Shown piece after piece: positions 20,532-63,525 of a DNA stretch of 64,000 bases. The stretch's first letter is position 1. Every line of letters starts with the position of its first letter. Both the position numbers and the translations under genes were made by a program. This stretch comes from an uncultured Verrucomicrobiae bacterium. GTDB lineage: Bacteria > Verrucomicrobiota > Verrucomicrobiia > Limisphaerales > Palsa-1400. The stretch spans positions 32,001-96,000 of the forward strand of contig CAVXRD010000002.1 of NCBI GenBank assembly GCA_963764165.1. Direction: 5' to 3'. A model generated the notes under the pieces. It was not told the origin of the DNA. It saw nothing but the letters and a program-made list of their open reading frames with translations, and searched no databases.

Positions 20532-20551
20532 TTGTTCAGCTACCTGAACAA
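20532..20551. promoter_or_regulatory. ICE operator copy 1 (TTGTTCAG-CTAC-CTGAACAA)
   Basis: Palindrome covering the -35 position of a leftward TATCTT -10 (20512-20507) before the xis-like gene. Confidence 0.75.
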
Positions 20552-20880
20552 GATTTCGGCTTCCTTTTGCACTGCAACAATTCCTCCAGCGATTCTCGCA
20601 GGTGGCCGTTGCCGTTGACCGGAGGATAAAGGTCCGTGATCGGAACTTTAAGGACATTGGCAAAATATAAGAGTTGCGTGTCCGTGACCTTATGAATTTT
20701 GGCTTCGATTTTAGCCAGACATTCGCGGCTAATGTCGTAGCCCTTGAGTTGCAGTCTGACGGTGAGTTGTGTCTGGGAGCACCCCTGTTGGTTACGGAGC
20801 CGCCGAATTTGCGGCCCCACGACGTTTAGATAATACACGTTGCCTCCTTTGCTTTGTCCAAGGAGGCAGACCCCACACAA
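20536..20880 (-). CDS. XRE-family HTH regulator
   Basis: NVVGPQIRRLRNQQGCSQTQLTVRLQLKGYDISRECLAKIE. Start uncertain. Confidence 0.8.
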   Translation of the reverse strand: MCGVCLLGQSKGGNVYYLNVVGPQIRRLRNQQGCSQTQLTVRLQLKGYDISRECLAKIEAKIHKVTDTQLLYFANVLKVPITDLYPPVNGNGHLRESLEELLQCKRKPKSCSGS

Positions 20881-21566
20881 GCGGCTGTCTCACGAGTCCG
20901 TTTCAACAATTATCTTCAGCGTGTAACGGTCAAAAACGCGACTTGATAAGAGAAGCTCCTCAGCAAAACACCTGTAGCTTATTTTAGGCCAGCCACGAGG
21001 GAAAAATTGATCAAGCAGACATTGAAAACCTCGTCGGAAAAAAATTCCAAAAAGTGTCAAATGAAACAAAATCTCTTGCAGACTTTGGGTGTCGTATCAG
21101 CTTTTCTCTGAGCGGGAGCCTCGCGCAAAAAGCGCAATTTTCACGCTTGCCGAGGACAAGTTACGGGGACGTTTCGAGTTGGGCAACAAGCCGAACGTTC
21201 CGATCTGAGTCCCAACATCTGCTCTTGGGTCAGAGGAGGGTCTGGCCGCAACGATTCGGTTTGGACGGCTACGAGTTCCACCGGGGAACAAAGTGTTGGT
21301 CGCGGAAGGATTCGAGAACCTGTGCGTAGGATTTTCCGGCGGCAAAATATCCGAAGGCGCATTTCCGGCGCAACAAATCCGCCCATTCCTCCACTGTTCG
21401 TTCACGGCAAAGGAACTTCACCCAAGCCCCGAGGCGAAAATGTCGTCCTCCAAGAAGGCATTCCCGTCCTTCGTAGGTGTATTGGGGCGGTTCAGGGCCA
21501 TGATAAGAATCGGTCGCCATTAAACGATAAGGTTTGATCTGTCAGTATTAGCCCCAAGCGGGGCTC

Positions 21567-23933
21567 TCAGGGTCTGGAGTCAAGCAATTCGCGAACTTTT
21601 CGCGCCAAGCTGGACGGCGTGAACGGTTTTTGCAGGAGGATGACTCCGTTGTTCAGAACGCCTTGGTGGACAATGGCGCTTTCGGTGTAAGCGGAAGTAA
21701 AGAGTATTTTGGTCTTTGGAAAAAGCGAACGCACGCGGTCCGATAATTCCTTGCCGCTCATGTGCGGCATGACCACATCCGTGAATAACAAATCAATGTG
21801 ACCGACTCCCGGTCGGTGCGCCAGGTTGAGGGCCTCAATTCCGTCACCGGCCGCGAGCACCGTATATCCCAGTTTTTGCAGCAATTCCTCGGTCATCTCC
21901 CGCAGCGCGGGGTGGTCCTCCACCATCAGAATCGTCTCGGCCCCGCGCGGCATGGTTGAGGACGCGGGCGGCTGGACTGGTAACGGCTGCCCTTGCGCAT
22001 AGGGCAGATAAATTTTGAATGTCGTTCCCCGTCCTAGTTCGCTGTAGACAGCGATATGGCCGTGGCATTGTTTTACGATACCGTGGCAGGTAGCCAGCCC
22101 AAGCCCAGTTCCTTTACCAACATCCTTAGTGGTAAAAAACGGCTCAAAGGCGCGCCGCTTGACTTCGTCGCTCATGCCCGGGCGGGTGTCCGTAATTGCC
22201 AGCATAACGTAGGGCCCAGGCTTAAGATCGGGCACGCGACTCGTATAGTCGTTTTCAAGCTCCACGTTTGAGGTCTCAAGCGTAAGTTTGCCGCCATTGG
22301 GCATCACGTCGGCTGCGTTCATCGCGATGTTGATGATGACCTGCTCAATCTGGCCGACATCCGCCCGAACCATCTTGATTCCCGCACCCGGCACAATGCG
22401 CACATCGGTGTCCCGTCCCATCAAATGGTGGAGCATGTTATCCATCCCCAGAATCACCTTGGTCAAATCGATGAGTTCCATGCGCAGCATTTGCTTGCGA
22501 CCGTAAGCCAAAAGTTGGCGGGTCAAACTGGCCGCCCGTTCGGCGGACTTGCCAATTTCGCGGATGGAATGGGAGGCCGGGCTTTCCGCAGGGAGATCCT
22601 CAAGCGCCATTTCGCTGCGACCGATAATCGCGGTCATAATGCTATTGAATTCGTGGGCGATGCCTCCGGCAAGTTTTCCTACCGTTTCAATCTTTTGCGA
22701 CTGAACCAAATGATCCTGCACTCGCTTAAGCTCAAAGGAGCGTCCGAGTTGAGTGCCGACATTGTTGCAAACGCGAAGCACGCCGGGCCCCTCACTCTTC
22801 GTGTCGCGGGCGAAAAACTCCATAACTCCGCCAAGTCCGTTTGCAGTCACAATTGGGAACGCGAACGCGCCGCGCAACCCAATCTGGGCAGCCGTTGCGG
22901 CACGGGGAAATGCCGGGTCCTTGGAAACATCTGGAATCCATATCGGTTCGCCGGTGCCCCAAACTCTGCCGGGAAGCCCGGCACCCTTGGCGAAAGTTAT
23001 GTCGCGCGATACCTGGAGGAAGCCATCAGCACAAAATCCCTCGACCGACCATGTCTCAGCGCATTTCAAAACAGCGGCCCGATGGTCAAGCATCCAAAGC
23101 GCGCCAACATCCTGTTTCAACGCCTCACCGATGACACGCATTGTCTTCTGGGCGCATTCCTGAAAGGTGGCTGATTCCGCCAGAACGCGGCTGACGGCAT
23201 ATTCCAAGTTTAGCTGTTGTTCGGCTTTCTTCCGTTCGGCAACCTCGGTTTGCAAAAGGGCATTGTCACGCCGCAGTTGCCGGGTGAAGCTGGAAACCAT
23301 GAAACTGGCCCCAATTGCTACCACAATGGCAAGGCCAACCAAAAAATCCCCGATCAGGCGGACCCGCGCAATCAGATTGGCGGTTGTCCGCGCCGCTTCC
23401 CTCGCGTTGACTTCAACCAAGCCCGTTAGCTTATTGATCGCGTCAAGATATTGGTTGTAGAGGGGCAACTGGCGCGACAGGGCCAGCGCGGCCGCCTCAT
23501 CATCTCGATTGAGCCGACTCAGAGCCAACACCGATTCGGTCTGCTCCCAGTAGGCTTTCCGTGCTTGCATGACATTTTCATACAAACCGCGTTCCTCGTC
23601 CCCCTCAATCAAACGCTTGTAGCTAGCCAGTTCAGTTGCATTAGTCGTCGCCGTCCGTGTGATGAATGCGTCCAGATGCACGAGTTCTGCTGAGTTCGTC
23701 GCAAGGATATGCTGAAGCACCCGCACCTGAATTTCGCCCACGTCCTGGGCGGTATCGTCAATCAAAGCCAATTTATCCAGCACCACGGATTGTTGCGTTT
23801 GGTTGCGGCTTTCAATGGCTCGAAGGCTGAACCAGAACAGCCCTCCGATCATCAGGAGTATGACGCATAAGATGACAATCGTGATCGTCATCTGCTGGCC
23901 ATTCGAGAACGGCTTCAAGATTTTCATTAGCAA
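21567..23933 (-). CDS. Membrane hybrid histidine kinase (four-helix-bundle sensor, GAF, HK, REC)
   Basis: Two TMs, GAF (GLPGRVW), H-box AHEFNS, GKGTGLGLA and REC (LLFTDVVMP). The G1 box reads DTRPG. Confidence 0.9.
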   Translation of the reverse strand: MLMKILKPFSNGQQMTITIVILCVILLMIGGLFWFSLRAIESRNQTQQSVVLDKLALIDDTAQDVGEIQVRVLQHILATNSAELVHLDAFITRTATTNATELASYKRLIEGDEERGLYENVMQARKAYWEQTESVLALSRLNRDDEAAALALSRQLPLYNQYLDAINKLTGLVEVNAREAARTTANLIARVRLIGDFLVGLAIVVAIGASFMVSSFTRQLRRDNALLQTEVAERKKAEQQLNLEYAVSRVLAESATFQECAQKTMRVIGEALKQDVGALWMLDHRAAVLKCAETWSVEGFCADGFLQVSRDITFAKGAGLPGRVWGTGEPIWIPDVSKDPAFPRAATAAQIGLRGAFAFPIVTANGLGGVMEFFARDTKSEGPGVLRVCNNVGTQLGRSFELKRVQDHLVQSQKIETVGKLAGGIAHEFNSIMTAIIGRSEMALEDLPAESPASHSIREIGKSAERAASLTRQLLAYGRKQMLRMELIDLTKVILGMDNMLHHLMGRDTDVRIVPGAGIKMVRADVGQIEQVIINIAMNAADVMPNGGKLTLETSNVELENDYTSRVPDLKPGPYVMLAITDTRPGMSDEVKRRAFEPFFTTKDVGKGTGLGLATCHGIVKQCHGHIAVYSELGRGTTFKIYLPYAQGQPLPVQPPASSTMPRGAETILMVEDHPALREMTEELLQKLGYTVLAAGDGIEALNLAHRPGVGHIDLLFTDVVMPHMSGKELSDRVRSLFPKTKILFTSAYTESAIVHQGVLNNGVILLQKPFTPSSLARKVRELLDSRP

Positions 23934-24259
23934 GAAGGCATGGCCTTAGCGTCCAGTAGCCCGTCAAATCCAGGCAGAGCTATATCCGAAAGGATCAAAT
24001 CGAACGGCTGTGTTTCCTGCGCCACCACAAACTCGGTGGCTCTAACGACCCGCGTGATCGTATGATCGACGCCCTCCCTGGCAAGCTCGTGGTGAACCAA
24101 ATCGCAGTCGATGGCGCTGTCTTCCAAAAAGAGAATGCGAACCCGCGACTTGGCGGCGGACCTTTCTCTGTTGTCTCGGGCCGACGGTTCGATCATGTCG
24201 ATATTGCGACGGAAATAGAGGCGCAGTCTGCCACGGAAAAACGCGTTAGTGGGGCTCAT
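23927..24259 (-). pseudogene. Truncated receiver domain
   Basis: RILFLED...FDLILSDIALPGFDGL, then terminates without the conserved Thr/Lys half of REC. Confidence 0.65.
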
Positions 24260-24481
24260 ATAGCGTCACGCCAATTGAACGGTCTGGCTCACTGCTATTT
24301 CTGAAATATAATCGCCACCACTCGGTGAAGCTGCTGCGTTGTCAGGCTTGAAAAAATCGTCATGATGTCTGGTTTAAGTGGCATTGTATTGGACAGTCAA
24401 CGCGAAAAGGAGGATCCATTTGTTCCGACCGGGGCGGGGGCCAGTTTGTCGTTGTTAAAGCTAGTAAGCCGGTTTTGGCGA

Positions 24482-26461
24482 TTATGTGCGTGTCGAAGGG
24501 AGAGTTTCCTGCGCTCGAGCATCCAGTAAATCGCGCACTCGGCGCACCAAGGTTGAAGTGTTATAGGGTTTGGGGAGAAAGGCTATGTTCTGCTGCGTTG
24601 CCATGTCCCCAAGAATGATCTCTTCCGTATAACCCGAAGTAAACAACACCTTGAGATGCGGGCTGCGCGATTGCAACCAATCCACCATTATTTTTCCGCT
24701 CATTTCGGGCATGACAACGTCGGTAATAACCAGTGCAATGGGATCGGCAGACTCACGAGCTACACTCAGTCCTGCCCTTCCATTGTCAGCCCTCAACACA
24801 TGATAGCCTTGGGCTTCCAAAACCAAGCAAGCCAAATCACGCACAGCAGGCTCGTCTTCGACCAGCAGCAACGTTTCCGTACCGCGGGGCAACGGCCCCG
24901 TTGGAGGTGGCTTGACCGCGATGTCCGGGGGTTGGGCAATTCTGGGGAAATAAATGTTAAATGTCGTGCCGCATCCAACTTTACTTTCGACGCTGATGTG
25001 TCCTCCGGCCTGCTGAACTATGGTATGGCAGGTTGCAAGGCCCAAGCCGGTGCCTTTGCCTTTGGGCTTCGTGGTGAAAAACGCCTCAAATAAATGCGCT
25101 TTAACCTCGTCCGTCATTCCGGTTCCCGTGTCACGGCAACTGAGCGACACGTAGTCTCCGGGTGACGCCTCGGCCCATAGTCGCGGGTCGCCTTCATTTA
25201 GCGTGACGTTAGTGGTGGCTATCGTGAGCCTTCCACCATCTGGCATGGCGTCACGGGCGTTTACCACCAGATTCATCGTTAATTGGCCTATATAGCCGGA
25301 ATCGGCCTTCACACGACCGAGTTTCTCTCCGAGAGAGATCGTTATTTGAACATCTTCATCAACGAGGCGCCGCAGCATTTTTTCCACCTCGTTCACCACG
25401 TCGTTGAGGTCAAGCACCACAAGCTGCACCGTTTGCCTGCGACTAAAGACGACCAATTGGCGCGTCAGTCCGGCCCCGCGCGCCGCCGCGTGCTGGATTT
25501 CGACTAGATATTCCCGCTCCTCGCACTCTGGGCTAAGACCCGGGGTAATTAGATTCGCATAACCCATAATGAGCCCGAGAATATTATCGAAGTCGTGCGC
25601 TATGCCGCCGGCCAATTGGCCCAGAACCTCCATTTTTTGCGCTTCGACAAGTTGCGCCTCGAGCTTTTTGATGCGGGAAATATCATGGCTGATCTTTGAG
25701 ACTCCCACGATCTCGCCATCGCGGGCTTCGATGGGAGTGAACCCGATGGAGACATTAATAAGGACGCCGTCTTTCCGTCGCCGAATCGTGTCAAAGGATC
25801 GAACCGTCTCGCCGTTCCTGACGTTAGCGATGGCGCTCATGTAATCCTTATAAGCGTCCGGCAGGAAAAGGCCGGAGACGGGGTGGCCGATCATTTCTTC
25901 GGCAGAATAACCATACAACTGTTCCGCACCTCGATTCCAACCAATGACGATTCCGTTGGCCGTTGTGCTGACGATAGCGTCTGACGAACACTCGATGATC
26001 GCGGCCAAACGCGCCATTTGCTTTTCCCTGGCCTTTCGTTCCGTGATGTCACGGACGTTGCACTGAATCACCTTTTTGTCACCTGCCTCATAGACGTTGC
26101 TGACAAACTCCACATCGATCTTGCGGCCATCCTTCGTTTCCAGCGGAAGGTCTTCATAACGAATAAAGCCATTTTTTTGCAACCGCCCCAACATTATGCT
26201 GTTCGCCTCAATATCCCTAAACGGACTAAGCTCGCCCACCGTTTTGCCGATCATTTCAGCCCGTGAAAAGCCAAGGAGTTCAAAGAGGAAAGGATTCACG
26301 TCGGTGATGCGCCCGGTGCCAACTTCCAGAATCAGGATGCCGTCTCTGGCTGCTTCAAACAGGCGGCGATAATTCGATTCGGATTCGCGGAATGCCAGTT
26401 CCATCCTAGCAGCGCCTTTTTCTGTTCGCGCATTATTACCGAGATTGGGCGTTTCCGTCAT
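24482..26461 (-). CDS. Cytoplasmic PAS-PAS hybrid histidine kinase (CckA-like)
   Basis: Two PAS/PAC domains, AHDFDN H-box, DTGTGM, GKGTGLGLA and a C-terminal REC. Confidence 0.92.
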   Translation of the reverse strand: MTETPNLGNNARTEKGAARMELAFRESESNYRRLFEAARDGILILEVGTGRITDVNPFLFELLGFSRAEMIGKTVGELSPFRDIEANSIMLGRLQKNGFIRYEDLPLETKDGRKIDVEFVSNVYEAGDKKVIQCNVRDITERKAREKQMARLAAIIECSSDAIVSTTANGIVIGWNRGAEQLYGYSAEEMIGHPVSGLFLPDAYKDYMSAIANVRNGETVRSFDTIRRRKDGVLINVSIGFTPIEARDGEIVGVSKISHDISRIKKLEAQLVEAQKMEVLGQLAGGIAHDFDNILGLIMGYANLITPGLSPECEEREYLVEIQHAAARGAGLTRQLVVFSRRQTVQLVVLDLNDVVNEVEKMLRRLVDEDVQITISLGEKLGRVKADSGYIGQLTMNLVVNARDAMPDGGRLTIATTNVTLNEGDPRLWAEASPGDYVSLSCRDTGTGMTDEVKAHLFEAFFTTKPKGKGTGLGLATCHTIVQQAGGHISVESKVGCGTTFNIYFPRIAQPPDIAVKPPPTGPLPRGTETLLLVEDEPAVRDLACLVLEAQGYHVLRADNGRAGLSVARESADPIALVITDVVMPEMSGKIMVDWLQSRSPHLKVLFTSGYTEEIILGDMATQQNIAFLPKPYNTSTLVRRVRDLLDARAQETLPSTRT

Positions 26462-26880
26462 TGGCCCAGTCCGTTAAGAAGGGAAAGATTACACTCTTCT
26501 TTCAAGATGCCTTTGAATGAACGAGGTGGGAGTGTTTCATACCAGCAAGCCTACGGAGAAGCGCCGCGTTCGTCTCTCAGGTCTTTCCCGGATATCATTT
26601 CCCGCAAATGTCACTCATAGTCTGCAATTTGCCTCACTAAGCGCCCCAATTGCTCCGCACTCTTAATCCGCCTAAGCGATGATCGGACCTTCGTATCGTC
26701 TCGCCGTGAATGCGCAGAATCGATGAAAAATTGGCACTGCGTTAAACGCGATGAGATACGGACCGCATTTAACGCCAATGCCATAGCGCCGGAGGGGTCG
26801 AACGGCTCTCCCGGAATATACGGTATCGCTATTGACGGCGGGCTTTGTTGCGTTTCGCTTCAGATTGGGTATAGTCGAGG

Positions 26881-27321
26881 GTGGCAACCCCAGCCTACAA
26901 CGTTTTGATTGCAGATGACTCGGAAGATGACCGTTTCTTTTTGCGCCGACTCCTGGAGCGCTTCCCGCGATTCAGAGTCATCCGTGAAGTCTGCGACGGG
27001 TTGGAGGCGATCGAGTTTTTGTCGAACGCGAAATCCAATCCCAAATCCGAAATGCTGCCTGATTTGCTGTTCCTGGACTTGAAAATGCCCCACAAAGGCG
27101 GGTTTGAGGTGTTGGAATGGATGCGAACCCAAAACTGTAGGCCGCTGACCGTGGCCGTTTTATCCAGTTCGGCTCTGGTCGAAGATCAACGCCAAAGCTT
27201 GCGGTTAGGAGCGGATGGATTTTGGGTGAAAACCGCCGATTCAGCCGTGCAGAACAGTATGGTGGCTGCGCTTGAAGCCATGCTGGATGAGCGCGCGAAT
27301 GCGCTCAAGAATGAAGGCTAA
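26881..27321 (+). CDS. Single-domain response regulator
   Basis: VLIADDSEDD...LFLDLKMP...VLSSS...WVK. Confidence 0.88.
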   Translation: MATPAYNVLIADDSEDDRFFLRRLLERFPRFRVIREVCDGLEAIEFLSNAKSNPKSEMLPDLLFLDLKMPHKGGFEVLEWMRTQNCRPLTVAVLSSSALVEDQRQSLRLGADGFWVKTADSAVQNSMVAALEAMLDERANALKNEG

Positions 27322-27528
27322 GCAGTTAACTATTTGCCGCCGCACAGGTTTTTTTTCGAGTGCGCGCTTTCCGAACCAAGCACCGGCAAGTAAGGCGCGA
27401 AGGAGCGCAGTTGTCAGCCAATCCTAAAACCTGCGGTCGATTGCGCAATTTCATGCCTCTGCAAGATTATTGCAAAAAGACAGAATTTCCCCCAGGTTGT
27501 TTACCGCTCGAACAAAGTTGCCGCTACC

Positions 27529-27740
27529 ATGATTTCAAACGAACGGCCATCGCCTTACGGAAATCGCGCTTACACGATTGAGAATCGAAGGTCGCCCGCT
27601 TCTGAAAACACGCTAAAAACGGAACGAATTCAAATCGAGCGCAAATCGTCCACGTTCACGCTCAAAGAAATCACAAAGGCCAGTTTTTGCGGATCACGGA
27701 GGATATTGGCGGACGATTCAACTGCACCGCCATTCCCCCA
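27529..27740 (+). pseudogene. PUR-family (DUF3276-like) ssDNA/RNA-binding protein, frameshifted and truncated
   Basis: MISNERPSPY...ERIQIERKSSTFTLKE continues in the -1 frame as NHKGQFLRITEDIGGRFN; the shift is at the A-rich run near 27664-27671. Confidence 0.68.
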
Positions 27741-27890
27741 AGCCCAAACAACTAGCCCGTCTGGCAATGAAGACAACCAAAGAGAGGGCCGGAAATAAAA
27801 GCCAAGATGAGTTTTCAACCGTCGGGCGAGTGGCGTGATTTGAAAAGGAAATCGCGTTGTATTCTTTCTTGCGAAAGTGCATTAAGAGGC

Positions 27891-28172
27891 ATGGCAAAAA
27901 CACCAAAAAAGACCGAGAGAACACCGAATGCAGCCTTCATGAAACCGGTTCAACCGGATGACAAGCTGGCCAAAGTCGTCGGCGAAAAACCGCTTCCCAG
28001 GACTGAGTTGACGAAAAAGTTGTGGGCCTACATCCGCAAGAACGGATTGCAGGACGCCAAGAAAAAGACGCTAATAAATGCGGACGAAGCGTTGAAGGCC
28101 GTCTTCAATGGAAAAAAGCAAGTCAGCATGTTTGAAATGACCAAGCTGGTCTCGGGGCATTTGAACAAATGA
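27891..28172 (+). CDS. SWIB/MDM2-domain protein
   Basis: NAAFMKPVQPDDKLAKVVG.KPLPRTELTKKLWAYIRKNGLQD...INADEALK...VSMFEMTKLVSGHL. Confidence 0.93.
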   Translation: MAKTPKKTERTPNAAFMKPVQPDDKLAKVVGEKPLPRTELTKKLWAYIRKNGLQDAKKKTLINADEALKAVFNGKKQVSMFEMTKLVSGHLNK

Positions 28173-44413: not shown

Positions 44414-44468
44414 TATGCCTTCAAAATTTGCAAATTGCGTGATCACACTATAGCCCAAGAATAATTAC

Positions 44469-44490: not shown

Positions 44491-44573
44491 CCCTCCAAGC
44501 CTGACGCCACGCGTTCCTGCACGATTGTCAACGATTCAATATCTCGGTCAGAAAAACAGCACATTGCTGTTCC

Positions 44574-45290: not shown

Positions 45291-45307
45291 TTCAGCCCTT
45301 CAGGATT

Positions 45308-46280: not shown

Positions 46281-46283
46281 TTT

Positions 46284-46493
46284 TTATTGATTTTGGACAT
46301 CGACAATGCGGCTTGGATCAAATGGTATATCCTCGCTCGTCCCGACTTTCACAATTTCTTTTGCCCACGCGATGAATACATCACGAATTCTGGTGCCGTC
46401 CTCCAAGACGACAATGACGCGGTTAACGCCATATTTGTATTCGGGAAACGTGGCTACTTTGTCCTGTAATTCTCTTGGCAATTCGCGGTTCAT
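46284..46493 (-). CDS. Putative cognate immunity protein
   Basis: 69 aa, cytoplasmic; its ATG overlaps the Rhs stop (TAATG). Confidence 0.7.
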   Translation of the reverse strand: MNRELPRELQDKVATFPEYKYGVNRVIVVLEDGTRIRDVFIAWAKEIVKVGTSEDIPFDPSRIVDVQNQ

Positions 46494-55400: not shown

Positions 55401-57448
55401 GTCAAGGCGTTCGTTTCATTGTAATGGTAATATGTGCTTGCGCTCCATGAGAGAAGACCGGGATAAAGCGTTGAACAGTTACCAAAGGTATTAGAGTAAT
55501 AAACGCCTTTCTCATAATCCAAAGGAACAACCACGGACCAATATGTCGGATCGCTGCCCGTCCCGCGCCAATATCGACCTACAGGAGATTGAACCGCATT
55601 GGTCGAGGAGCCAGGTGGCAAGATCGTCACGACTGCTTGTGTGTTGACGGCAAGATAATAAAGGCTGTTTGTGGAGAGCGTCAAAACTGCGGTTCGGGCA
55701 TTTGTCAGAGTGGGGCTGAGTGTCGGACCAACGATCAAATTTGTTGCGACTTGATAAGGAGCAAACGTAACCGATAAGGGGAGATTGGTATAGGTGGTGC
55801 CAGCGATGGCAGTCCCGCTGAGAGTAAAATTGGCCGTGACAGCTTTTGGATAGCCATAGGTACGGGTGATCGTAAAACTCCCTGAGGTTCCGCCCTGAAT
55901 GGCGTCGGATGCAGTGGCAGTTACACCAATCATTGGCGCGTCTTCGATTATCCCAATACTGGTGTTACTCAAGACGCCGTAATAGTACATGGTGCCCGGC
56001 TGGAGAGCCATGTTCAGAATCTTCGTGCCGTTCAAACTGGCTTCTGTTCCAGGGGTCAATGTGTTGGTCAATGCTGGTGCCCCAGCCGGTATGACAGCAG
56101 AACCGCTCAGAGATGGGGTATAATCAACGCCATTCACTGCTGTGCTTCCGGACAGGCTGTAATTTACCGTTTTTGCCGCACTAACCCCGGGATAATAGCT
56201 TTCGCGTTCAAAAATGAGGGTGGCTGTGTTTTCGCCTCGGGTCATTGTCGAGCTAGCGAGGATGTCCACATTGGGAAAATCTTCGTCAATTTCAATGGAT
56301 GTACTGTTATACGTGCCGACGCTGTACCCACTACTAGACGCAAGCGCCACGTCCAAATACTTAATTCCGTTCGTGGATGTTTCGATCGCAGGAGTGAGAG
56401 TATTGGTTACTGACCAACTTCTTGCTGGAATGACGAGGGTGCCTGAAAGCGATGGGGTATAATCAACGCCGTTAATTGCAGTGCTTCCCGAGAGACTATA
56501 ATGAATTGTGCGAGCCGTCCCTGAGTTCGGCCAGTATGACTCCCGCTCGATGACGAGAGACGAGGTTGTATCACCACGAATCATCTGTGGCGACGTAGCA
56601 AACACATCTACAATGGGAAAATCATTATAGATATATACCTCCATATTTGTGTAGGGGGCATAGAGAGCGTATGTGCCGCCTGTAACGGAAACCCTGATTG
56701 TCTTGTCCGTAGCCTGATTTGTATTGTTGGCCGTTATCGTCACGTCAGCGTGATCGCTTTCGTTTGGAATGGTAACCGTTCCAATGGTCGGAGTATAATC
56801 AGTTCCCGCGACGGCTGTACTGCCAGTGAGGCTATAGTTTATTGTTCTGCCGTCAGTCAAATAATTTCGGAAGAAACGAATCGTGGTTTGATCGCTGTTC
56901 GTAATCCCCCCCTGCAAGATATAGTTTGTCCCTACATATAACGTTCCCCCAATAACAAACCCAACCCCAACAGGGTTGTTGTTGTCCTGAATCGTTAGGG
57001 ACGCTGTTTGGATGTGATTGCTGTCAGTGTAACCACTTGCGATTTTCAGGATGCCCGTACGATCGTAGTCAACACTTGAATTCTGTGGGACGGGAACCGA
57101 GAAGGAGGCAATTGTTTGATTGGCAGCAATAGTAATGTAGTACAGACCATTGCTGCTCACGTCATAAGATTCAATTGGATTCGTTCCTGTTCCGGGATAT
57201 GGAATTTGTAGCGTTACGGTCACAGGCGAGGCCGGAAACCAGTCGCATGAGGACGTGCAACCAGTGTTTATCGCCTCACGAGTAACGGTTCCTGTGATTG
57301 TGCCGCCTTTTACGCCAGTATAAGAACTGGTGTTTAGGTAAAACGCAGTGTTGAATCCTGCCTGGGCGGTGAGTGCGGCGGTTACGAAGAAAATAATGAT
57401 TGGCCAAAGGCGCGGAATCGCACGGAAGGAAAGTGTTCGGGCTGTCAT
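46493..57448 (-). CDS. Giant Rhs/YD-repeat polymorphic toxin with signal peptide, Calx-beta-like repeats, transglutaminase-like and DUF6531-like domains
   Basis: Signal AQA; GSTAV.G.DY repeats; ALLVYLLRQAGVPATY; DPVNNITGEF...LGRNYSS...FGSGW; YD repeats; core end RPYD...ADPLG...NPAIYFDADG; variable C-terminus. Confidence 0.92.
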   Translation of the reverse strand: MTARTLSFRAIPRLWPIIIFFVTAALTAQAGFNTAFYLNTSSYTGVKGGTITGTVTREAINTGCTSSCDWFPASPVTVTLQIPYPGTGTNPIESYDVSSNGLYYITIAANQTIASFSVPVPQNSSVDYDRTGILKIASGYTDSNHIQTASLTIQDNNNPVGVGFVIGGTLYVGTNYILQGGITNSDQTTIRFFRNYLTDGRTINYSLTGSTAVAGTDYTPTIGTVTIPNESDHADVTITANNTNQATDKTIRVSVTGGTYALYAPYTNMEVYIYNDFPIVDVFATSPQMIRGDTTSSLVIERESYWPNSGTARTIHYSLSGSTAINGVDYTPSLSGTLVIPARSWSVTNTLTPAIETSTNGIKYLDVALASSSGYSVGTYNSTSIEIDEDFPNVDILASSTMTRGENTATLIFERESYYPGVSAAKTVNYSLSGSTAVNGVDYTPSLSGSAVIPAGAPALTNTLTPGTEASLNGTKILNMALQPGTMYYYGVLSNTSIGIIEDAPMIGVTATASDAIQGGTSGSFTITRTYGYPKAVTANFTLSGTAIAGTTYTNLPLSVTFAPYQVATNLIVGPTLSPTLTNARTAVLTLSTNSLYYLAVNTQAVVTILPPGSSTNAVQSPVGRYWRGTGSDPTYWSVVVPLDYEKGVYYSNTFGNCSTLYPGLLSWSASTYYHYNETNALTQTNWTNRIPFNNPIVSFGERVGGTPLYLSQEYNFGIYAGDPVGVGTPLKILAFFRTNFSFAGETDLYPPNFSNTNSWNNFTSNGLQVTASGYGLTTVLSTTPKLSFGATTLGAYTLTHTASSSATNYYYLILQYGLPNDSYQIGMAQDTNGYVAPSYLYSLEFEQRPPWRATMIDQPQFNGNPLPPFYAGMTLDEILTNTPPVNNSVGLSPSACTNIDQSPELRRSLVIDQFVADMGNDPMALANYVLNDIDLTDPMDYNDDGTVSEQSVNPSGVSRGALGVFLEKQGSPVEQCALLVYLLRQAGVPATYMFPAHNGLQILDARLSQMLRFQVHGSFNDAGQLYSSNTMIAVNYPWVAAYIGTNWVHIFPWLKDYQMVEGLNLYEYMPTNYSSAYGWAKDYIYGASNILSLATNGDNTPRVIFPKYLAQTLLQNYPGVSVDDIGMQILPRRHNYSRWQDFPTPTFLTNTSYTVESLSANSITNVDPLMTNVFDTFSLEIYSQTDPHKDIQTGPMRLTDLHNRQFYITATNNITNQILLSLVLSPFRTNIATQYSFTNDSTLLSKEVLSINLDQFDDQLWVRFVYNRHRALSPSYAINPYSTYLGYAADRNIVMERPLRKGELAAICLDYGRVTQDMLNVHAEDLWQMENTLRTNPTASISPDVYQGATLYLAGMSYYKNVSDFDQVNRNFHKIDTLSTWAAGLSILGPLRDSSGNLTNGTVDSVLPSVDMFYYDVATVGNASSRPDSGQSIETATQNYNLIRVVDGSAEEHQVLNDYYQQSNAVSTVRLLQLAQSRGLGIVPLSVNTYASQGSTVYQGSQLQTFDPYVWNQVVSAFQNNNNDYGFVTAYITPGPVSNSAFSGMGAFVFGFNQQAAVISPNSLNGAFGENLPNNSVTPGNAVNYNLTMGDTATLTFQAPTSGTTLLPDQIANFNSAQVYNQILSGDYAATPYDSAWSANVQSSLDLTAQSTQNQNLAQDVQQTQQKGFWGTLSDMGSQLMSQVADPVNNITGEFYVSEVDLKLAGPIPLSLGRNYSSLNLADNQFGSGWKFSIAPYLSVAQSNLNIYAADMDGAVLSYVQSPTNSNLWMPTTAANPQLVNNTSSGVGGLVNRLRDRLVQTVTSGTTNFALYGADGSIRVFQYITFNNGVLNQTRPYMLAWTNNCGNFYTFTYGSDPSQPDFGQVRRIQCSNGNFLGFYYDVYGHIIEAYCGDGRRLVYAYDKFGDLIGVTLPDGTTRSYQYLHGTQSVTNGSAVTQQLFSTHLIAEEDNPNGRVLQNTYDSQRRVTNQWSTAGIDLNPIRTATFYYSNNFNLTNSATNAISGYTTVVDGNNGTNRYDYTNSLITQVTDPFGQTIQQSWYADNATAPGYPRSVSQRKDKRGIWTQFKYDLNGNITNTVITGDISGDGILTQAATNTAVYNTNSLPLQRTDPVGNSTFYVYDTQFPFLPAQTIRYASLNPIVTNLQLYANATNVVILGSITQTNFSCGLLVRTVRAYSSPDAATNDFTYNGQGFLTQSVAYSGTSDPSITNTFLYNERGQLVDESDALGATTEFAYDDLGRRTEQENFDEGGNLLSWNFNYYNENGELTWVDGPRYNPEDYIWHDYDGAGRPTTEIHWRCEAKQDGSGVQAPAGYNLYAQTFNSYDTLGNLTRTVDPRGAITSNTWDSLCRLTRRQFFDVDGITLLSSETFGYEPGGLLRYHTNALGGITETEYTAAGQPEYRHNADGSTNAWRYYLDGRIYREFQCNGAYVQTTYDDFNRLTTKVIYSALGVPLRTNSVQLDRRGNSIQETDALGNIFVSSFDGLDRVKIESGPAIVTVDSIVSGLNPAGPPTYTTNISQQSVTFFYDGSGRVLTFTNTLGEKTITTKDALGRQVSVQVFAPGSLTPLHVTTNVYSADHHSVTVTEGTGGGAISTTTYLDNDGRKLLTASSPGGGKLDYDLHRYDLSGNEIEHDKASSGLILWSFSSWTFDGLNRIETETTRDYATTTYRYDQLNDLTNRAMPGNLTWSATYSSAGQMLNEWDQTGAQGTRTNVYTYYSSAWPGLVQSVTDQRGVTRTNLYDDFLRITNTTTAGSLPEQQLSIVWQYEPRGLVSSITQAYVNTNAGVATSIQRSYDAYSQLSSDTLTVGGVPATISQQWDSAGRRTQVSSGMSFQYRADNLMTAMNDATYAYADNGLLTGRTNAFRSVSVDSRDSIGRPLQMTTKVFGTTEMTETWKWLDDGSPSNYVATRGDFTDTRNFSYAPLTRKLTQESFNLAGASSLTNKYTFDNGVAAGLGVLTSASELSASSNSWMGGVDAFSRIITGTNTIIERVATGHVNGAATLRGYLNGQPLDLRYDGRGASQWSAALGLQRGTNTLAVYADHPGGLFTTNRVSAFTVGSNAADQVSSQYDGSGNVTNLVWKNGSGQLIKVQTLTWDAFNRLVKVNERDTNNNGFNLAVVFDALGRQVQTVETTVSNNIALTSGPEPLTIGYQYDPQIQFQPVILSLSQGSDFRQDILTYGPDTSGHYGGMQGVGGIEEITSGTASVNLTSGIISDGFGNVLAGITNGVLSWNSARLSLYGPADGYSPPRLSLASPAFASLAWRSRAINTAGFAQLGFRPYDFTRRAFLCADPLGHGSDEALNTAFGGNPAIYFDADGRVSRNIYKEGALDADALSSGVFWGGVANTSYNLGARTVNGLAQAGEIGYDMTAQTAWALGGAGGDYQGFSQLYQNIYNNPSAGPTSSDILMGTLEAEANIGSLGLYGMGKGFGEAAATGDFTAAQDASLGSLFLSAGVQGMQEAGMDPLSFKYVPTPAGNALLSALGALRDGDASAATQLEFDFGNSLNTSSKPSGVAPTPTATATTGTGGANATQMEFPFANGASVQTPDVTQAGETFVRVGAGPVNLKFGSGSLSGAQPGTYAFPEAAFNAIGQDPAALKNFGDLPGKPPQYFRILRPPPGTPIQRGIVPGGEFGGVGGAQEVIFPKGF

Positions 57449-57463
57449 AATTGCAGTTGTTGG

Positions 57464-57889
57464 TTATTGAACTGTTGAGCCGTTTGCTGGCGTGTCGATT
57501 GTAACGGTGAGCGCGCCTGCTGCCGGATTGTTTGGGTCAGCCAGTTCGTAATCGGGAATTCCGCTGTAAAATTGTTCTATTTGCGCTTTGAAAAAACCCG
57601 CAGAGTAACCTTCTCCATTAACGTTGAAGTTGGTGATACCGTTCGTTCCTAGGGCAATCAATTGCCACGGATAATCAGGGTCCGCGAGGGAAGGAGTCCA
57701 ATACAGCTCGTAAGAATTGGTGGAGATTGCGTTCGTAATTACGACGACATATTGGTTTGTGCCGGCAGAATTAATGGCGAGTCCGGGCGGGGTCTGAGCA
57801 CAGAGTTTGAAAGCGAAACAAAGAAGAATGAATGCGGCTACGCTTGCACCGGCGAATGTTGCCCAATATTTTTGAAGGATTGTTTTCAT
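57464..57889 (-). CDS. Small secreted protein upstream of Rhs
   Basis: Signal peptide; YELYWTPSL...W...AGFFKA; ends 15 bp before the Rhs start. Confidence 0.72.
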   Translation of the reverse strand: MKTILQKYWATFAGASVAAFILLCFAFKLCAQTPPGLAINSAGTNQYVVVITNAISTNSYELYWTPSLADPDYPWQLIALGTNGITNFNVNGEGYSAGFFKAQIEQFYSGIPDYELADPNNPAAGALTVTIDTPANGSTVQ

Positions 57890-58087
57890 TGGATTCCCTG
57901 AAGTTGGCTTATTGAGTAATCTATTTCTTTGCCGTTAAGTTGACGCTCTTTCCCCTAATTTGATCCGCTGCCCACCTGGTATTTTGTTGCGATTGCGTTG
58001 CCTTATAGAGCGTTTTCGCCGCCCTGCTGCCCGATACTTGACTATAGCAAAGTTCCTGTCAAGGCCGATGTTTTGCGAGGCTTCGTC

Positions 58088-58399
58088 ATGCCCGGCATCG
58101 GACATTACGAAACGATACGAAAGGAAATTATTCGACTTTTGCGCCTCGAACGCGAGCGTCGAGGGCTCTCTAATTACGTCGTGGCGCAACGTTCCGGGGT
58201 CTCTGAATCCATGTTGAGTTTGGTTGAGCGGGGACTTAGAAATCCAACGCTCGAATTGATGCTGCGTGTTGCGGACGGAATCGGAGTAAACTTGGCCTAT
58301 TTTATCGAAGAAGCCCAACAACCTGCTCACAGAGTCACTCCAAAAGGGCGCGTCAGAGGAAAACAACAAACCGCAAACAGCTCGCCTCCCAAAAAATGA
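58088..58399 (+). CDS. XRE-family HTH regulator (divergent from the Rhs operon)
   Basis: LRLERERRGLSNYVVAQRSGVSESMLSLVERGLRNPTL. Confidence 0.85.
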   Translation: MPGIGHYETIRKEIIRLLRLERERRGLSNYVVAQRSGVSESMLSLVERGLRNPTLELMLRVADGIGVNLAYFIEEAQQPAHRVTPKGRVRGKQQTANSSPPKK

Positions 58400-59048: not shown

Positions 59049-59279
59049 TTGTTGAAAAAGGATCCTTCGCTCAAAGCGTTTGGAGAGAAAGTCCGCCAAG
59101 TGCGAAAGGCACAAGGATTGTCTCAGGAGGGTCTTGCCTTTGAATCAGGAATAGATCGCAGCTACATGGGAGGTGTCGAACGGGGAGAACGAAATTTGTC
59201 CCTAAAAAAAATGTGTCGGATTGCCAAGGTACTGCATTGCGATTTGTCCACTTTAACCACGGGCTTGCCTCTCGACTGA
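59049..59279 (+). CDS. XRE-family, R-M controller (C-protein)-like regulator
   Basis: FGEKVRQVRKAQGLSQEGLAFESGIDRSYMGGVERGERNLSL. Confidence 0.88.
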   Translation: MLKKDPSLKAFGEKVRQVRKAQGLSQEGLAFESGIDRSYMGGVERGERNLSLKKMCRIAKVLHCDLSTLTTGLPLD

Positions 59280-60188: not shown

Positions 60189-61685
60189 TTAGGCTCCCAA
60201 CCCTGCCAACCAGCGGCGCTTGTACCACCGAGAAATCTTTCCATCGGCCTCCAGTGGCGGAAGGACCGTTTTTTTTAGTCCGCGTTCGCAATGCACCAGC
60301 ACGCATTGATGCTTTCTCAGGTTGCGCAATTCGTATGGTTTCATTTTGTGTTCGTCCTGGTCGTAATAATTGCGCGTGGTCGTTCCGTTGGAATAACCCC
60401 AACTGCGTTTGGTCACTTTTTTCTGCCCAAGAAAATCGGCGCTGTCCAAAGCTCCCGCTTCGTCGGCAGCTTTGAAAATGATTCTGTTGCGCAGATTCAG
60501 CGTGAAAACCTTGGCTTTGTCGGCCCCAAGTGGCGGGATGAACGAGGTCGCTGACTGAGCGGCCGCAACCATCGTGGCCCGAGCTTCCCGAATTACGTCG
60601 ATGGAATTGAAATCGCTCATGCCGTCTTCGCTGGCCGTCACAAACCGCTGCGCCTCGTCGGCCCACAGAATGAGCAGATTATCGTCGGCTCGCTCCTGTT
60701 TGGTGTGGTCAAATCGCCGCAGAACGTGCGTGTAAAAAAGCATTTTGAGATACGTATTCACGTAACGTCGCTCCATTTGATATTTCTGCGGCATCGAAAC
60801 GCAGATAATTTTCCCGTGGTCGATGTCTGAAAAGTCAAACGTGTTGCTTTTGCCGATGGGGCAGAACACCTCAGAAATGTCCGGGGCGGCGAAGCATTGA
60901 AGATAGTTGCCGATGGTTTCCCGAACACCACCGATTTGCTCGGGCGGCTGATTCTGATAACGATTGACAAAGTGATCCCGCAGTTCATTCCGCCTCTGGG
61001 TGCGATGGCTTTCAGCCAAAGTCTTCATGGCTTCGTCGAGATCATTCTTGTCGAGCAAGATGCTGAGGGCGTTTTCCAGCGTCACGTCACCCGCAATTTC
61101 GTAAAGCAGTTCCAGCGCAAAGGCGATGTGGGTTTGGGCCTGCGTTTTGAAAAACCCTTTGTCTCCCTGCTGGCCCAAGCTGCTGGCCGAATCGACCACA
61201 AATTTGGCGAACGTGCTGAACGGGATACCCGGCGCGGACGTGAGATTGTATTTATGCTTCGGCTTCCAGTCTGAACGAGCATTGTCCGGTCTGACTTGCA
61301 AGAGAATTAAATCCCGCTCTCGGTTGAAGTGTTTTGCCATCGCTTCCAGCGTTTCCCAATAAATGCCTTTGTCGTCGATGCACAGACCGCCCCAACGCGG
61401 CTCGTTCTTGAAAACTTGATAGAGCAACTGGTTGATGCCGGAACGAGTTTTCCCTGAACCCGTGTCGCCCGTAATCAGCCAACCTCGGCAGAAATCCTCT
61501 CGCGACCATGAAAGCCCATTAAGCCGAACAATTGCCTTGGTGCCATTTCCCCACAGGAGAACAAAACCAACTACCCCTGCCGCCAGCAACAAAGCCCAAT
61601 CCCATGAAGGGATATGCGCCAGACTCCGCCACAGCGCAGCCGCTTCGCTGGCCGTCCCCCTCAAGATGTGATTCAAAGCATTCAT
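60189..61685 (-). CDS. virD4: VirD4/TraG-like type IV coupling protein
   Basis: N-terminal TM, GDTGSGKT, LWADEAQRF, REAR...AAQS, NLRNRIIFK. Confidence 0.87.
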   Translation of the reverse strand: MNALNHILRGTASEAAALWRSLAHIPSWDWALLLAAGVVGFVLLWGNGTKAIVRLNGLSWSREDFCRGWLITGDTGSGKTRSGINQLLYQVFKNEPRWGGLCIDDKGIYWETLEAMAKHFNRERDLILLQVRPDNARSDWKPKHKYNLTSAPGIPFSTFAKFVVDSASSLGQQGDKGFFKTQAQTHIAFALELLYEIAGDVTLENALSILLDKNDLDEAMKTLAESHRTQRRNELRDHFVNRYQNQPPEQIGGVRETIGNYLQCFAAPDISEVFCPIGKSNTFDFSDIDHGKIICVSMPQKYQMERRYVNTYLKMLFYTHVLRRFDHTKQERADDNLLILWADEAQRFVTASEDGMSDFNSIDVIREARATMVAAAQSATSFIPPLGADKAKVFTLNLRNRIIFKAADEAGALDSADFLGQKKVTKRSWGYSNGTTTRNYYDQDEHKMKPYELRNLRKHQCVLVHCERGLKKTVLPPLEADGKISRWYKRRWLAGLGA

Positions 61686-62047
61686 AAAAGAAACCGGCCC
61701 AGGACAAAGCCGGTAATCAGACAGGCCAGCGACGCGATCAAGATGGCAGTGACTTTGCCGTGGGCCAATTCCTCGCGGAATTTTGGAAAGGCGCGCAATT
61801 CCTCGGTGACGCTCCCGGTTTGCTTCGTCAATTCTTTGATGAGTCGGTCGGTTTGTTCCAAAGTGTCCCGAAACTCCGTGTATGAAGGCGGCGGCGGGTT
61901 GATAGGGCCATTGCCGTAGCGATGATTGAAGTAAATTTCCAGCAGCTCCAAGATGGCCGTCGTCGGGTCGTTCTCACGGATTTTGTGCTTCTGCTTCCAT
62001 TCCGCGATGGATTTTTGGAGCGAGATGGTGACTGCGGTTTCGTTCAT
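61682..62047 (-). CDS. TraM(IncP)/StbC-like protein with C-terminal TM
   Basis: HKIRENDP motif, coiled coil, terminal TM; third gene of the TraKL-like module. Confidence 0.55.
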   Translation of the reverse strand: MNETAVTISLQKSIAEWKQKHKIRENDPTTAILELLEIYFNHRYGNGPINPPPPSYTEFRDTLEQTDRLIKELTKQTGSVTEELRAFPKFREELAHGKVTAILIASLACLITGFVLGRFLL

Positions 62048-62739
62048 ACAAGAAGAAGTTCCTGGGCAGATTGAAGTTGTTCGTTAAAACGCCGTTGCCA
62101 GTTGAGCAGGCGTTGCCGGTCAATGATCGAGCATTTGTCGGACTGCCCACCCTGGCTGACGGTTAAATTCTCGGCGTTCAGCTTGGCCACCAGCCAACCG
62201 TATAGCGGGGGCATCATGATTTCCTTGGCCCGCAATTCGCCCACCACCTTTTTCCGCGTTTGGCTCTCGTCATAAAGTCGGAAGTCTTCGCACAGGCCGT
62301 AATTCTTGACCACGACATAGGCGCTTTGATCTGACAGCACCTCGGAAAGCAGTTGCACTTGCCCCACCGCGTCCGCGTCGTGAGAAATCGGGATGATGAC
62401 GGTGAGTGACGCTTTCAACTTTCCAAGCAGTTCGGCAAATCCGACTTCGCCGAAATAGGCCAGAAATTGATCGGTCGAGGCGGCGCGTCCATCCACCACT
62501 ACCAGTGGTTGAACATCCAGCGAAGTGAAAATGGCATCCATTTCCTGCTTCTTGTCCAAATTGACGAACACCGCTTCGGGATGCGCTCGTTTCAAGCTGG
62601 AATTGGCGTTATCCGTGTCGATGGCGACATGGGGTTGATTTTGGTCTTTCAGGAATTGCACGAGGTTGACGGCAAAGAAACTTTTGCCGACGCCTCCTTT
62701 GGCATTCAGGACCATGATGATTCGTTTTTTTGTGCTCAT
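62044..62739 (-). CDS. TraL/StbB-like ParA-family ATPase
   Basis: Deviant Walker A KGGVGKS, IDTDNAN, VVVDG; start MSTKK at 62739. Confidence 0.78.
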   Translation of the reverse strand: MSTKKRIIMVLNAKGGVGKSFFAVNLVQFLKDQNQPHVAIDTDNANSSLKRAHPEAVFVNLDKKQEMDAIFTSLDVQPLVVVDGRAASTDQFLAYFGEVGFAELLGKLKASLTVIIPISHDADAVGQVQLLSEVLSDQSAYVVVKNYGLCEDFRLYDESQTRKKVVGELRAKEIMMPPLYGWLVAKLNAENLTVSQGGQSDKCSIIDRQRLLNWQRRFNEQLQSAQELLLV

Positions 62740-63107
62740 AAACTTTTGGGATCGACCACGCGCGGGCCGGTGGGTGCCTGGTAACGTCCTGTTCTGCGTT
62801 GGTCGGCCAGCGCCTTGGCGGCGGTCATGCCGTTGCTGGACGCACAGCGTACCTTTTGCTTTCGTTTGCTGCCGCGACTTTCCGGTTCGGCTAAAACGAG
62901 GTGGCAAAAGCGGGCCACGGTATCAGCCGAGACGGCCACGGCGGTTTGGGCCAAGTAGGTGCGAATGATTTCGTAGGACGCTCCCTTTTTTCGGGCTTCC
63001 GCAATCGAATCCCGGAATTCCAGCAGGAGCCGCAATTTGGCCGGTCGCAGCGATGGGTGCTGCTGAATCAAGTTTTCAAAAGCGTGGCGTGAATCGTTGG
63101 CGTCCAT
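62736..63107 (-). CDS. TraK(IncP)/StbA-like DNA-binding protein
   Basis: FRDSIAEARKKGASYEIIRTYL...VSADTVARF HTH-like unit; upstream of the TraL-like ATPase and next to the repeat array. Confidence 0.6.
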   Translation of the reverse strand: MDANDSRHAFENLIQQHPSLRPAKLRLLLEFRDSIAEARKKGASYEIIRTYLAQTAVAVSADTVARFCHLVLAEPESRGSKRKQKVRCASSNGMTAAKALADQRRTGRYQAPTGPRVVDPKSL

Positions 63108-63131
63108 AGATCAAACCTCGAAATGTCGTTT

Positions 63132-63406
63132 GTTCTTGCGGCAGTCCTGCGGCAATCGTCGTCGAAGCATCGTTGGCCGCGGCGGGAGGTGTGCGGCAAG
63201 TTTCGTTGAAAAATCGTTGAGGTCTGCGGCAATCTTGCGACAAAGATCGTTGGAACTTGCGGCAGTCCTGCGGCTAAAGTCGGTGAATTTTGCGGCAATG
63301 CTGCGGCAAAGATCGTTGAAACCTGCGTCAATATTGCGGGACGGATTGTTGAAGTTTGCGGGAGACTTGCGGCAAAAATCGTCGAGACTTGCGGCGAGTT
63401 TCGTTG
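63132..63406. repeat. Degenerate tandem array: six 33-bp units built from 11-bp subunits
   Basis: Units start at 63209, 63242, 63275, 63308, 63341 and 63374, consensus aaa.ATCGTTG a...tTGCGGC a...tTGCGGC; extra 11-mers at 63132-63208. Confidence 0.85.
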
Positions 63407-63505
63407 GCCAACATCTAACGGACGTTAGAGGTCGGGCGTCCCTTCCTTTTTCATGGGCATACAGCGAATGCACGCCCACAGTTAAGCACAGTCCATTCTG
63501 TGCAG

Positions 63506-63525
63506 TTGTTCAGGCTTCTGAACAA
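63506..63525. promoter_or_regulatory. ICE operator copy 4 (TTGTTCAG-GCTT-CTGAACAA)
   Basis: Palindrome upstream of the repeat array and the traKLM-virD4 operon. Confidence 0.75.

Follow-up and report, generated by a model that had tools for sequence, protein, structure and literature searches.

What reads an 18-bp palindrome that recurs in front of the transfer genes of an integrative and conjugative element (ICE), and does it turn those genes on or off? The question is posed by a stretch of 64,000 nucleotides from an uncultured soil bacterium of the Verrucomicrobiae, Palsa-1400 lineage (assembly GCA_963764165.1, contig CAVXRD010000002.1, positions 32,001 to 96,000 of the forward strand). We call this stretch the window, and positions below are counted from its first letter unless a contig or locus is named; (+) and (-) denote strands. 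An original prediction, made from the letters alone, held that four copies of TGTTCAG-N4-CTGAACA define a regulon spanning the ICE, controlled by one master regulator that is either a class II-type activator or a repressor resembling LexA or XRE proteins. Our analysis leaves us slightly more inclined than not to regard the palindrome as the shared operator of an element-encoded, lineage-specific dimeric regulator that jointly switches on the operons for excision, for the pilus and type IV secretion system (T4SS), and for DNA processing.

Palindrome copies and the genes that they face

All four copies are present and perfect (20533-20550, 42854-42871, 44471-44488 and 63507-63524, here sites 1 to 4), where 0.15 copies would be expected by chance and none of 100 shuffles reached four; allowing up to two mismatches adds no further match in the window. 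The entire 7.0-Mb genome contains six perfect copies, five of them inside the ICE. The fifth (site 5) lies beyond the window at C2:99915 (window-equivalent 67915-67932; L001:3915-3932), directly 5′ of the TrwC relaxase gene, and the sixth, at C1:1102066, is about 200 nt upstream of the XRE gene in a module made up of an XRE-family gene and an excisionase-family gene. All six full sites are located in mobile modules, and the chromosome is otherwise without the motif. The statement that the host part holds no copies is thus correct for the window and nearly right for the genome, the C1 copy being the exception. The four-copy regulon, in turn, is real in its sites but incomplete, since it has a fifth ICE copy and its motif is one of several lineage-specific variants. 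Between positions 48000 and 105000 of C2 there are eight perfect 7-N4-7 palindromes of any arm, and five of these eight are TGTTCAG-N4-CTGAACA. As a separate observation, contig C1 of this genome (G000) contains, from position 185962, a single perfect 7-N4-7 palindrome repeated 92 times at intervals of about 72 nt, a series that looks like a large CRISPR-type array.

Among 41 relatives, most of which, like most relatives compared throughout, are metagenome-assembled genomes (MAGs), the motif occurs in nine genomes, all of one family, and the reversed-pattern control in none. A scan at the family level found it in 11 genomes out of 31. Of 400 other genomes sampled from the phylum, 16 carry a single copy each, compared to one genome with the control pattern. 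The enrichment inside ICEs that a scan of the genome and its relatives was expected to reveal is therefore borne out, with five of six genome copies in the ICE and orthologous sites in at least three related ICEs. Among the papers listed by literature searches on the inverted repeat and on Verrucomicrobia integrative and conjugative elements, none concerned the motif.

The element itself is conjugative by its Pfam matches, which include TrbL/VirB6, TrbI/VirB10, CagX/VirB9, a VirB4-like ATPase, a weak pilin match, a coupling protein, a ParA-like protein, the TrwC relaxase and a tyrosine recombinase. Gene starts were taken from the longest open reading frames (ORFs) and from alignments. Site 1, with the sequence TGTTCAG-CTAC-CTGAACA, overlaps the stop codon of an XRE-family helix-turn-helix gene, XRE1 (20536-20880, (-); HTH_31/HTH_3 matches below the Pfam cut-offs), and faces an HTH_17 gene of the excisionase family. 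According to Pfam and NCBIfam, the latter heads a predicted operon (18532-20499, (-)) that consists of the HTH_17 gene (20284-20499), a gene for a 200-aa protein (19676-20278) and TrbL/VirB6 (18532-19731), an order that also follows the palindrome in other ICEs. The 200-aa protein is conserved, but neither Pfam nor NCBIfam yielded a family for it, and no ESM Atlas match exceeded 0.78.

Site 2 is common to two divergent transcription units: a pilin-like plus VirB4 operon (-), whose pilin-like gene has only a TrbC match of E 0.009, below the cut-off, and a gene for a stand-alone ClpB-D2-like AAA+ ATPase (AAA_2 plus ClpB_D2-small; 42904-43821, (+)). This head-to-head pair is kept in all related ICEs examined, at 67-88% identity. 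Site 3 precedes a gene at 44012-44458, for which no family was found. Site 4 precedes a predicted operon (60189-63479, (-)) of unknown genes, a ParA-like gene (62044-62907) and the gene for the T4SS coupling protein (60189-61685), and it has its twin in site 5, before the relaxase gene. Promoters for excision, for mating-pair formation and for DNA processing thus have one cis-element in common, as had been proposed; the xis-virB6, pilin-led, 44012 and coupling-protein units were all recovered, the names traK, traL and traM being the part that we could not confirm.

Distance to start codons and -10-like hexamers

The sites have a common layout, in which the palindrome is followed by 20 or 21 nt, a hexamer whose second base is A and whose sixth is T, usually another 6-8 nt, and the start codon. 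The three hexamers originally listed, TATCTT (20512-20507), TAGGAT (42833-42828) and TAGTGT (44450-44445), each lie 20 nt past the palindrome edge on the (-) strand. At site 1, 7 nt separate TATCTT from the ATG (20499) of the HTH_17 gene, and all five orthologues of this site have a similar hexamer at offset 20 (TATCTT, TATTCT, TATTCT, TATTGT and TATTCT). On the pilin side of site 2, the three orthologues read TAGGAT, TAAGAT and TATGAT; within the pilin ORF (42524-42829), the first ATG (42829) overlaps TAGGAT, and a second ATG (42817) lies 10 nt on. On the AAA+ side (42892-42906, (+)), TTCAAT at offset 20 is followed by 6 nt and the ATG at 42904, and the three orthologues (TTCAAT, TCCTAT, TTAGAT) all have 6 nt and an ATG after the hexamer. 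At site 3 the hexamer may be either TAGTGT or TATAGT (44452-44447). Site 4 has TTAACT at offset 21 (63485-63480), then 6 nt and a GTG at 63473, and site 5 has CACAAT, 4 nt and a GTG.

We scored this spacing with a general -10 weight matrix for Escherichia coli promoters. Across nine gene-facing contexts, the mean score is highest at offsets 20 and 21 (+3.0 vs about -4), and seven of the nine score best at 20 or 21, compared to none of three sides that face no gene. A wider count covered the 120 distinct site-orientations from every locus gathered. Of the 120, 49 have an ATG at offsets 32-36 that opens a frame of 60 or more codons (15, 13, 12, 6 and 3, respectively), while any other offset up to 119 has between 0 and 5, and the dinucleotide TA stands at offset 20 in 35 of the 120, vs about 2-3% elsewhere.

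If the hexamers are real -10 elements, the mRNAs would be leaderless or nearly so, and the centre of the palindrome would lie at about -41.5 to -43.5, at the -35 position. Judged by the phased hexamers (offset 20 or 21) and start codons (31-36), the operator would be centred some 41-45 nt upstream of the start and would cover the -35 region, in line with the class II-type option of the original prediction. A regulator dimer would then bind the palindrome over the missing -35 element and recruit RNA polymerase in a class II-type manner, and one site would drive both operons of a divergent pair.

Several points weigh against placing the operator in this way: the matrix comes from E. coli; the offsets were examined after the pattern had been seen; transcription starts are placed by sequence only; and orthologous sites are related by descent and so are not independent samples.

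The arms could instead be promoter elements themselves. A consensus scan of 42400-44800 found one sigma-70-like promoter, at site 3, in which the proximal arm TGAACA is separated by an 18-nt spacer from TATAGT, and found no -35/-10 pair at site 2. In principle, then, each proximal arm might be the -35 element of back-to-back promoters, used by the host sigma factor or by one like the extracytoplasmic function type, and the palindrome would result from abutting divergent promoters. TGAACA does match four of the six positions of the sigma-70 -35 consensus, and several sites serve divergent genes. However, site 1, the xis sites of related ICEs and the small XRE-xis modules described below face genes on one side only, yet their dyad symmetry is perfect, and the hexamer is missing wherever no gene is faced. 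Furthermore, the usual spacing of 20-21 nt is beyond the sigma-70 range, and the arms differ among close ICEs of the same bacterial groups, a change that the host polymerase does not require. We also saw no sigma-factor gene in the ICE, where one weak Sigma70_r4_2 match falls in the HTH_17 protein. We thus consider this explanation very unlikely. A by-eye reading of TGGCA-N6-CG downstream of some satellite sites as a sigma-54 promoter was rejected: one group has no -12 GC, and the palindrome would be too close for an enhancer-binding protein.

The promoter layout also bears on whether the operator is a repressor site, with XRE1 acting in the manner of CI or ImmR over the -35 region of all transfer promoters and silencing the integrated element until it is inactivated. 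Site 3, with its proximal arm read as the -35 element of a complete promoter, has the layout that a repressor would block. At the other sites, however, the 20 nt between arm and hexamer exceed what a sigma-70 -35 element allows, so that these promoters would be weak without help, which counts against repression. In addition, repressor sites differ in position from one promoter to another, and a spacing kept so rigidly near -41.5 across many unrelated promoters is what activators typically show. Repression by XRE1, to which we return with the candidate proteins, is in our judgement unlikely, though it deserves serious weight.

Related elements, arm variants and small modules

The ICEs in G011, G043 and G002 keep the palindrome at orthologous places, with diverged flanking non-coding sequence: 5′ of xis (G011 L015:3785; G002 L020:8525 and L021:783; G043 L040:6640), between the pilin and AAA+ genes (L014:6705, L039:8891), 5′ of the 44012 homologue (L014:5075, L039:7258, both with a single mismatch) and in the interval that separates the relaxase gene from the ParA/coupling-protein operon (G002 L019:4050; G043 L043:5597). 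In G002 and G043 a single palindrome serves the relaxase and coupling-protein operons divergently, with no insert. In the present ICE, a cassette encoding a MEDS protein, a multi-PAS histidine kinase and a receiver-only response regulator (63675 to window-equivalent 67812; L001:20-3812) is inserted at exactly this point, between the two operons, and the palindrome is duplicated on both flanks as sites 4 and 5. G449 has a 3.7-kb insert at this position, likewise between two palindromes.

To look further afield we used a protein search with VirB4, which gave 79 loci, nearly all from Verrucomicrobiota MAGs; nine with less than 820 nt upstream were excluded. In 11 of the 70 that remain, a single perfect TGT-N12-ACA palindrome precedes the VirB4 match by 620-690 nt, which places it upstream of the pilin gene; another locus has a palindrome with a single arm mismatch, three have one with two mismatches, and 55 have none; a control stretch within VirB4 gave 0, 0 and 1 for perfect, one-mismatch and two-mismatch palindromes. 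The arms at these loci are TGTTCAG, TGTCCAG, TGTCCCG, TGTTCCC, TGTTCGC and TGTGCCG, and the opposite arm is always the exact complement. TGTTCCC-N4-GGGAACA occurs six times each in G446 and G447, nine times in G448, four times in G450 and not in G449. The corresponding counts for TGTTCGC-N4-GCGAACA are one each in G446 and G447, none in G448, five in G449 and four in G450, and control patterns gave no match in any of these five genomes. G451, G452 and G453 each contain two to three copies of their own version. These variant sites occupy the same functional places as the TGTTCAG sites, and the variant lineages have an additional site 5′ of a gene for a 1,700-aa helicase/methylase, which is palindrome-free in the present ICE. 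In more distant ICEs (L064, L075, L088, L119), palindromes of the form GCTCC(C)-N4-6-(G)GGAGC are found at about -700 from VirB4 instead of TGT-N12-ACA; since they stand at the same place, the operator family may extend beyond the TGT...ACA frame.

Two properties of the palindromes do not sit easily with a protein operator. The symmetric arm changes preserve a hairpin as well as they preserve a dimer site, and the 4-nt spacer is oriented, being purine-rich on the strand that is antisense to the relaxase gene and sense to xis and pilin, which a symmetric dimer leaves unexplained. The palindromes might therefore act as hairpins in single-stranded DNA or RNA, as binding sites of the relaxase or an accessory protein, like those of an origin of transfer (oriT), or as priming or processing signals on the transferred strand. 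MOBF oriTs have an inverted repeat adjoining nic with 7-bp arms and a 4-nt loop, and the palindrome resembles it in both dimensions. Every arm variant is compensatory, the hairpins are predicted to fold with -5 to -8 kcal/mol in DNA and with -9 to -11.5 kcal/mol in RNA, and the palindrome stands beside a TrwC-type relaxase gene in several unrelated element types. However, five copies per ICE would mean several transfer origins, vs one site per element by nic, and the copies within one element all share their arms, an identity for which base pairing alone has no need. Moreover, -10 hexamers and start codons occur in phase on either side, which links the sites to promoters. Finally, the relaxase N-domains do not track operator type, with 71% identity within vs 75% across types in one comparison and 54% vs 61% in another. 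These points make a hairpin function improbable, and the same identities led us to reject the relaxase as reader of the arms. As a candidate for the oriT core we note a non-coding stretch of about 70 nt past site 4 (63437-63506, (-)), which contains a 6-bp inverted repeat with a 6-nt loop and is almost identical in the G002 ICE (L019), where neighbouring proteins are only 40-80% identical.

The palindrome is also found in front of small modules that lack a conjugation apparatus. These comprise XRE plus xis modules (L003, L018, L024), including the C1 copy of this genome; TrwC-relaxase modules (L025, L027, L028), whose relaxases are 33-37% identical; integrase-xis islands (L135, L136); and one module that is strongly conserved but unannotated. 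Four TGTTCCC sites are present in such islands of G450, which has neither a TGTTCCC ICE nor an orthologue of the regulator linked to TGTTCCC (see below). If the palindrome is the operator of an ICE-encoded activator, the XRE-xis, relaxase and integrase-xis modules would be hitch-hikers that respond to the regulator of a helper.

Two further conserved features accompany these modules. In the small XRE-xis modules, the XRE gene is separated from the palindrome by a conserved leader of about 190 nt with short inverted repeats of its own (L003:17085-17278 on C1 of this genome; L018, L024, L033), which could be a 5′ untranslated region or a small RNA. Unrelated small modules also share another perfect palindrome, whose arms measure 9 bp and whose spacer measures 2 nt; it lies downstream of the main one by about 60 nt (on the relaxase side in L025, L027 and L028; also in L041).

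Candidate readers and known counterparts

The first candidate to consider is the host's own LexA, since the original prediction noted a likeness to the LexA box; the palindromes would then be SOS boxes with altered spacing that tie transfer to DNA damage. Erill et al. reportedly described, in 2016, the Verrucomicrobia LexA box as TGTTC-N4-GAACA, and the outer five bases of each arm equal these half-sites. The half-sites are, however, separated by N8 and not N4, a difference of 4 bp, the motif is missing from the chromosome outside mobile modules, and sister ICEs use other arms. The LexA reading also fails because neither LexA_DNA_bind (PF01726) nor Peptidase_S24 (PF00717) was found at E<=0.001 in this 97% complete genome, controls being found in 10 and 9 of 14 reference genomes, respectively. 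We therefore set this link aside as highly implausible. The organism may be one without a canonical LexA.

Within the element, XRE1 is the leading candidate reader, a tentative choice reached purely by elimination, to which we give somewhat less than even odds. Its orthologues in three related ICEs are 72-78% identical, and there as well the gene abuts site 1; a comparison of XRE1 with PDB sequences gave no match at E<=0.1. We also compared ICEs of different operator type, G446 and G447 (TGTTCCC) against G450 (TGTTCGC), whose backbones are 85-95% identical in both comparisons. The only real type-specific genes are those for a NarL/GerE response regulator (76% vs 27%) and for an adjacent XRE1-family protein (69% vs 46%), and the sole TGTTCGC-specific gene common to G450 and G449 encodes another XRE1-family protein (74%). 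The XRE1 family is the only DNA-binding family that is both lineage-specific and present in all three types. For the TGTTCCC lineage, the NarL/LuxR-type response regulator is an equally good candidate, and its orthologues of 76-79% identity occur only in three genomes with TGTTCCC ICEs.

The same facts can be turned in favour of repression by XRE1. Its gene adjoins site 1 here and in three close relatives, a member of its family follows the palindrome or a variant with one or two mismatches in five small modules (L003, L018, L024, L033, L034), and XRE1-family genes are among the few that are lineage-specific. Immunity-type XRE/CI repressors, such as ImmR of ICEBs1, SetR and lambdoid CI, have palindromic operators of 14-18 bp that differ between related elements as specificity groups, and they share with the present case an XRE-family gene beside the excision operon. 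Unlike those systems, this ICE has no detectable protease partner (no S24 or ImmA-type protein among the ICE ORFs scanned, and no S24 genome-wide), its sites are single and not in tandem arrays, and they are spread across the whole element at a rigid, activator-like distance.

Other findings count against XRE1 in either role, or against an element-encoded activator in general. The residues of the recognition helix (helix 3) do not follow the arms: the window protein has SRE[C/S] and that of G451 SRSR, both with TGTTCAG, and the XRE1-family helices of G446 (DRVC) and G447 (SRAG) differ, both with TGTTCCC. A tree of the XRE proteins mixes operator types, and paralogues muddle it. An XRE1 homologue (E<=1e-6) is missing in G017 and G019, two of the nine motif-bearing genomes among the 41 relatives. 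As for the response regulator, this ICE contains no GerE/LuxR-type protein, the 37 GerE matches of the genome all lying elsewhere, and no close orthologue of the TGTTCCC response regulator was found, the best matches in G000, G002, G011, G043 and G451 being 41-43% identical.

Further candidates were examined and dismissed. The HTH_17/excisionase gene is the commonest neighbour of the palindrome, but the recognition helix of its product is identical in TGTTCCC and TGTTCGC ICEs, and paralogues of 64-75% identity occur without any palindrome. A NarL-type regulator beside the helicase-linked XRE gene in G450 has copies of 80-84% identity in genomes without the TGTTCGC operator, and none in G449, which has the operator.

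The element encodes two more XRE proteins. XRE2 (57998-58399, (+); HTH_3, E 1.7e-11) is 74% identical to L014:5025-4732, and in the G011 ICE its orthologue diverges directly from the site-3 palindrome. Here, a cargo block (44574-57889) with a gene for a 3,651-aa RHS/DUF6531 protein and small flanking ORFs separates site 3 from XRE2. XRE3 (59049-59279, (+); HTH_3, E 3e-13) has no orthologue in the related ICE stretches compared. Another cargo block (21567-28172), between XRE1 and the conserved ICE genes, encodes two hybrid histidine kinases (of 4HB_MCP-GAF and PAS types), receiver-only proteins and a SWIB-domain protein, and is absent from sister ICEs.

Taken more broadly, the observations could describe a large family of conjugative elements in soil Verrucomicrobiota, a picture that we offer as quite possible but somewhat short of an even chance. 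The whole transfer programme of such an element would depend on one 18-bp box at leaderless promoters, and orthogonal versions of the box would have arisen by symmetric arm changes, each with its own element-encoded regulator, perhaps of a family not yet recognised as a transfer activator. With each version read by its own regulator, ICEs that share a cell would not cross-talk, while small islands without a regulator would borrow the box of a helper. We know of no work on the control of conjugation in Verrucomicrobiota, an abundant soil phylum that is seen mostly as metagenome bins. A compact, searchable cis-element at transfer promoters could serve to locate the borders of ICEs and of their hitch-hikers in MAGs, to predict operons along with start codons, and to track down the regulator. 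Its lineage-specific symmetric variants would amount to a natural experiment on how operator and regulator specificity drift jointly and how satellites track their helpers, and the leaderless class II layout, if true, would inform our understanding of gene expression in the phylum.

Among known systems, the small modules most readily recall the islands that depend on AcaCD and SetCD. AcaCD, of IncA/C plasmids, activates in the class 2 manner, and its boxes lie upstream of xis in both SGI1 and MGIVmi1 (PMC4207636). Both there and here, with the class 2 geometry suggested for our sites, one box stands 5′ of many transfer operons and of xis, and the box of a helper, in our case a putative one, precedes the xis or mobilization genes of unrelated small islands. 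SetCD, of the SXT/R391 ICEs, is likewise a master activator with mobilizable islands that carry the helper's box. Unlike the regulator proposed here, AcaCD and SetCD are FlhDC-like heteromers that act on a non-palindromic box, and neither FlhC nor FlhD had a match among the 154 window ORFs scanned against Pfam.

The closest known system is the TraR/tra-box regulon of Agrobacterium Ti plasmids, whose regulator belongs to the LuxR family. TraR has four 18-bp inverted-repeat tra boxes (PMC3907764), those of class II type being about 45 nt upstream of the transcription start and over the -35 element; one tra box serves the divergent traA and traC operons, on the relaxase side and the coupling-protein side; and the central bases of the box matter although they are uncontacted. 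The present ICE is similar in its 18-bp palindrome, with five copies 5′ of the xis, pilin/AAA+, 44012, ParA-coupling-protein and relaxase genes, in a predicted centre near -42, in the relaxase and coupling-protein operons that diverge from one box in sister ICEs, and in its conserved, oriented spacer. It differs in having no LuxR/GerE-type protein, a GerE response regulator being linked only to the TGTTCCC lineage, in its apparently leaderless promoters, in being an integrative element of Verrucomicrobiota, and in arms that come in at least six lineage-specific versions. Because the LuxR-type regulator is missing from the element, we describe the ICE as working like TraR and do not file it as a member of that system. 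The principle that the box of a master regulator recurs across a conjugative element is already familiar from Ti plasmids, IncA/C plasmids and SXT/R391, and what we describe is this familiar kind of control in a little-studied phylum, in several sequence versions.

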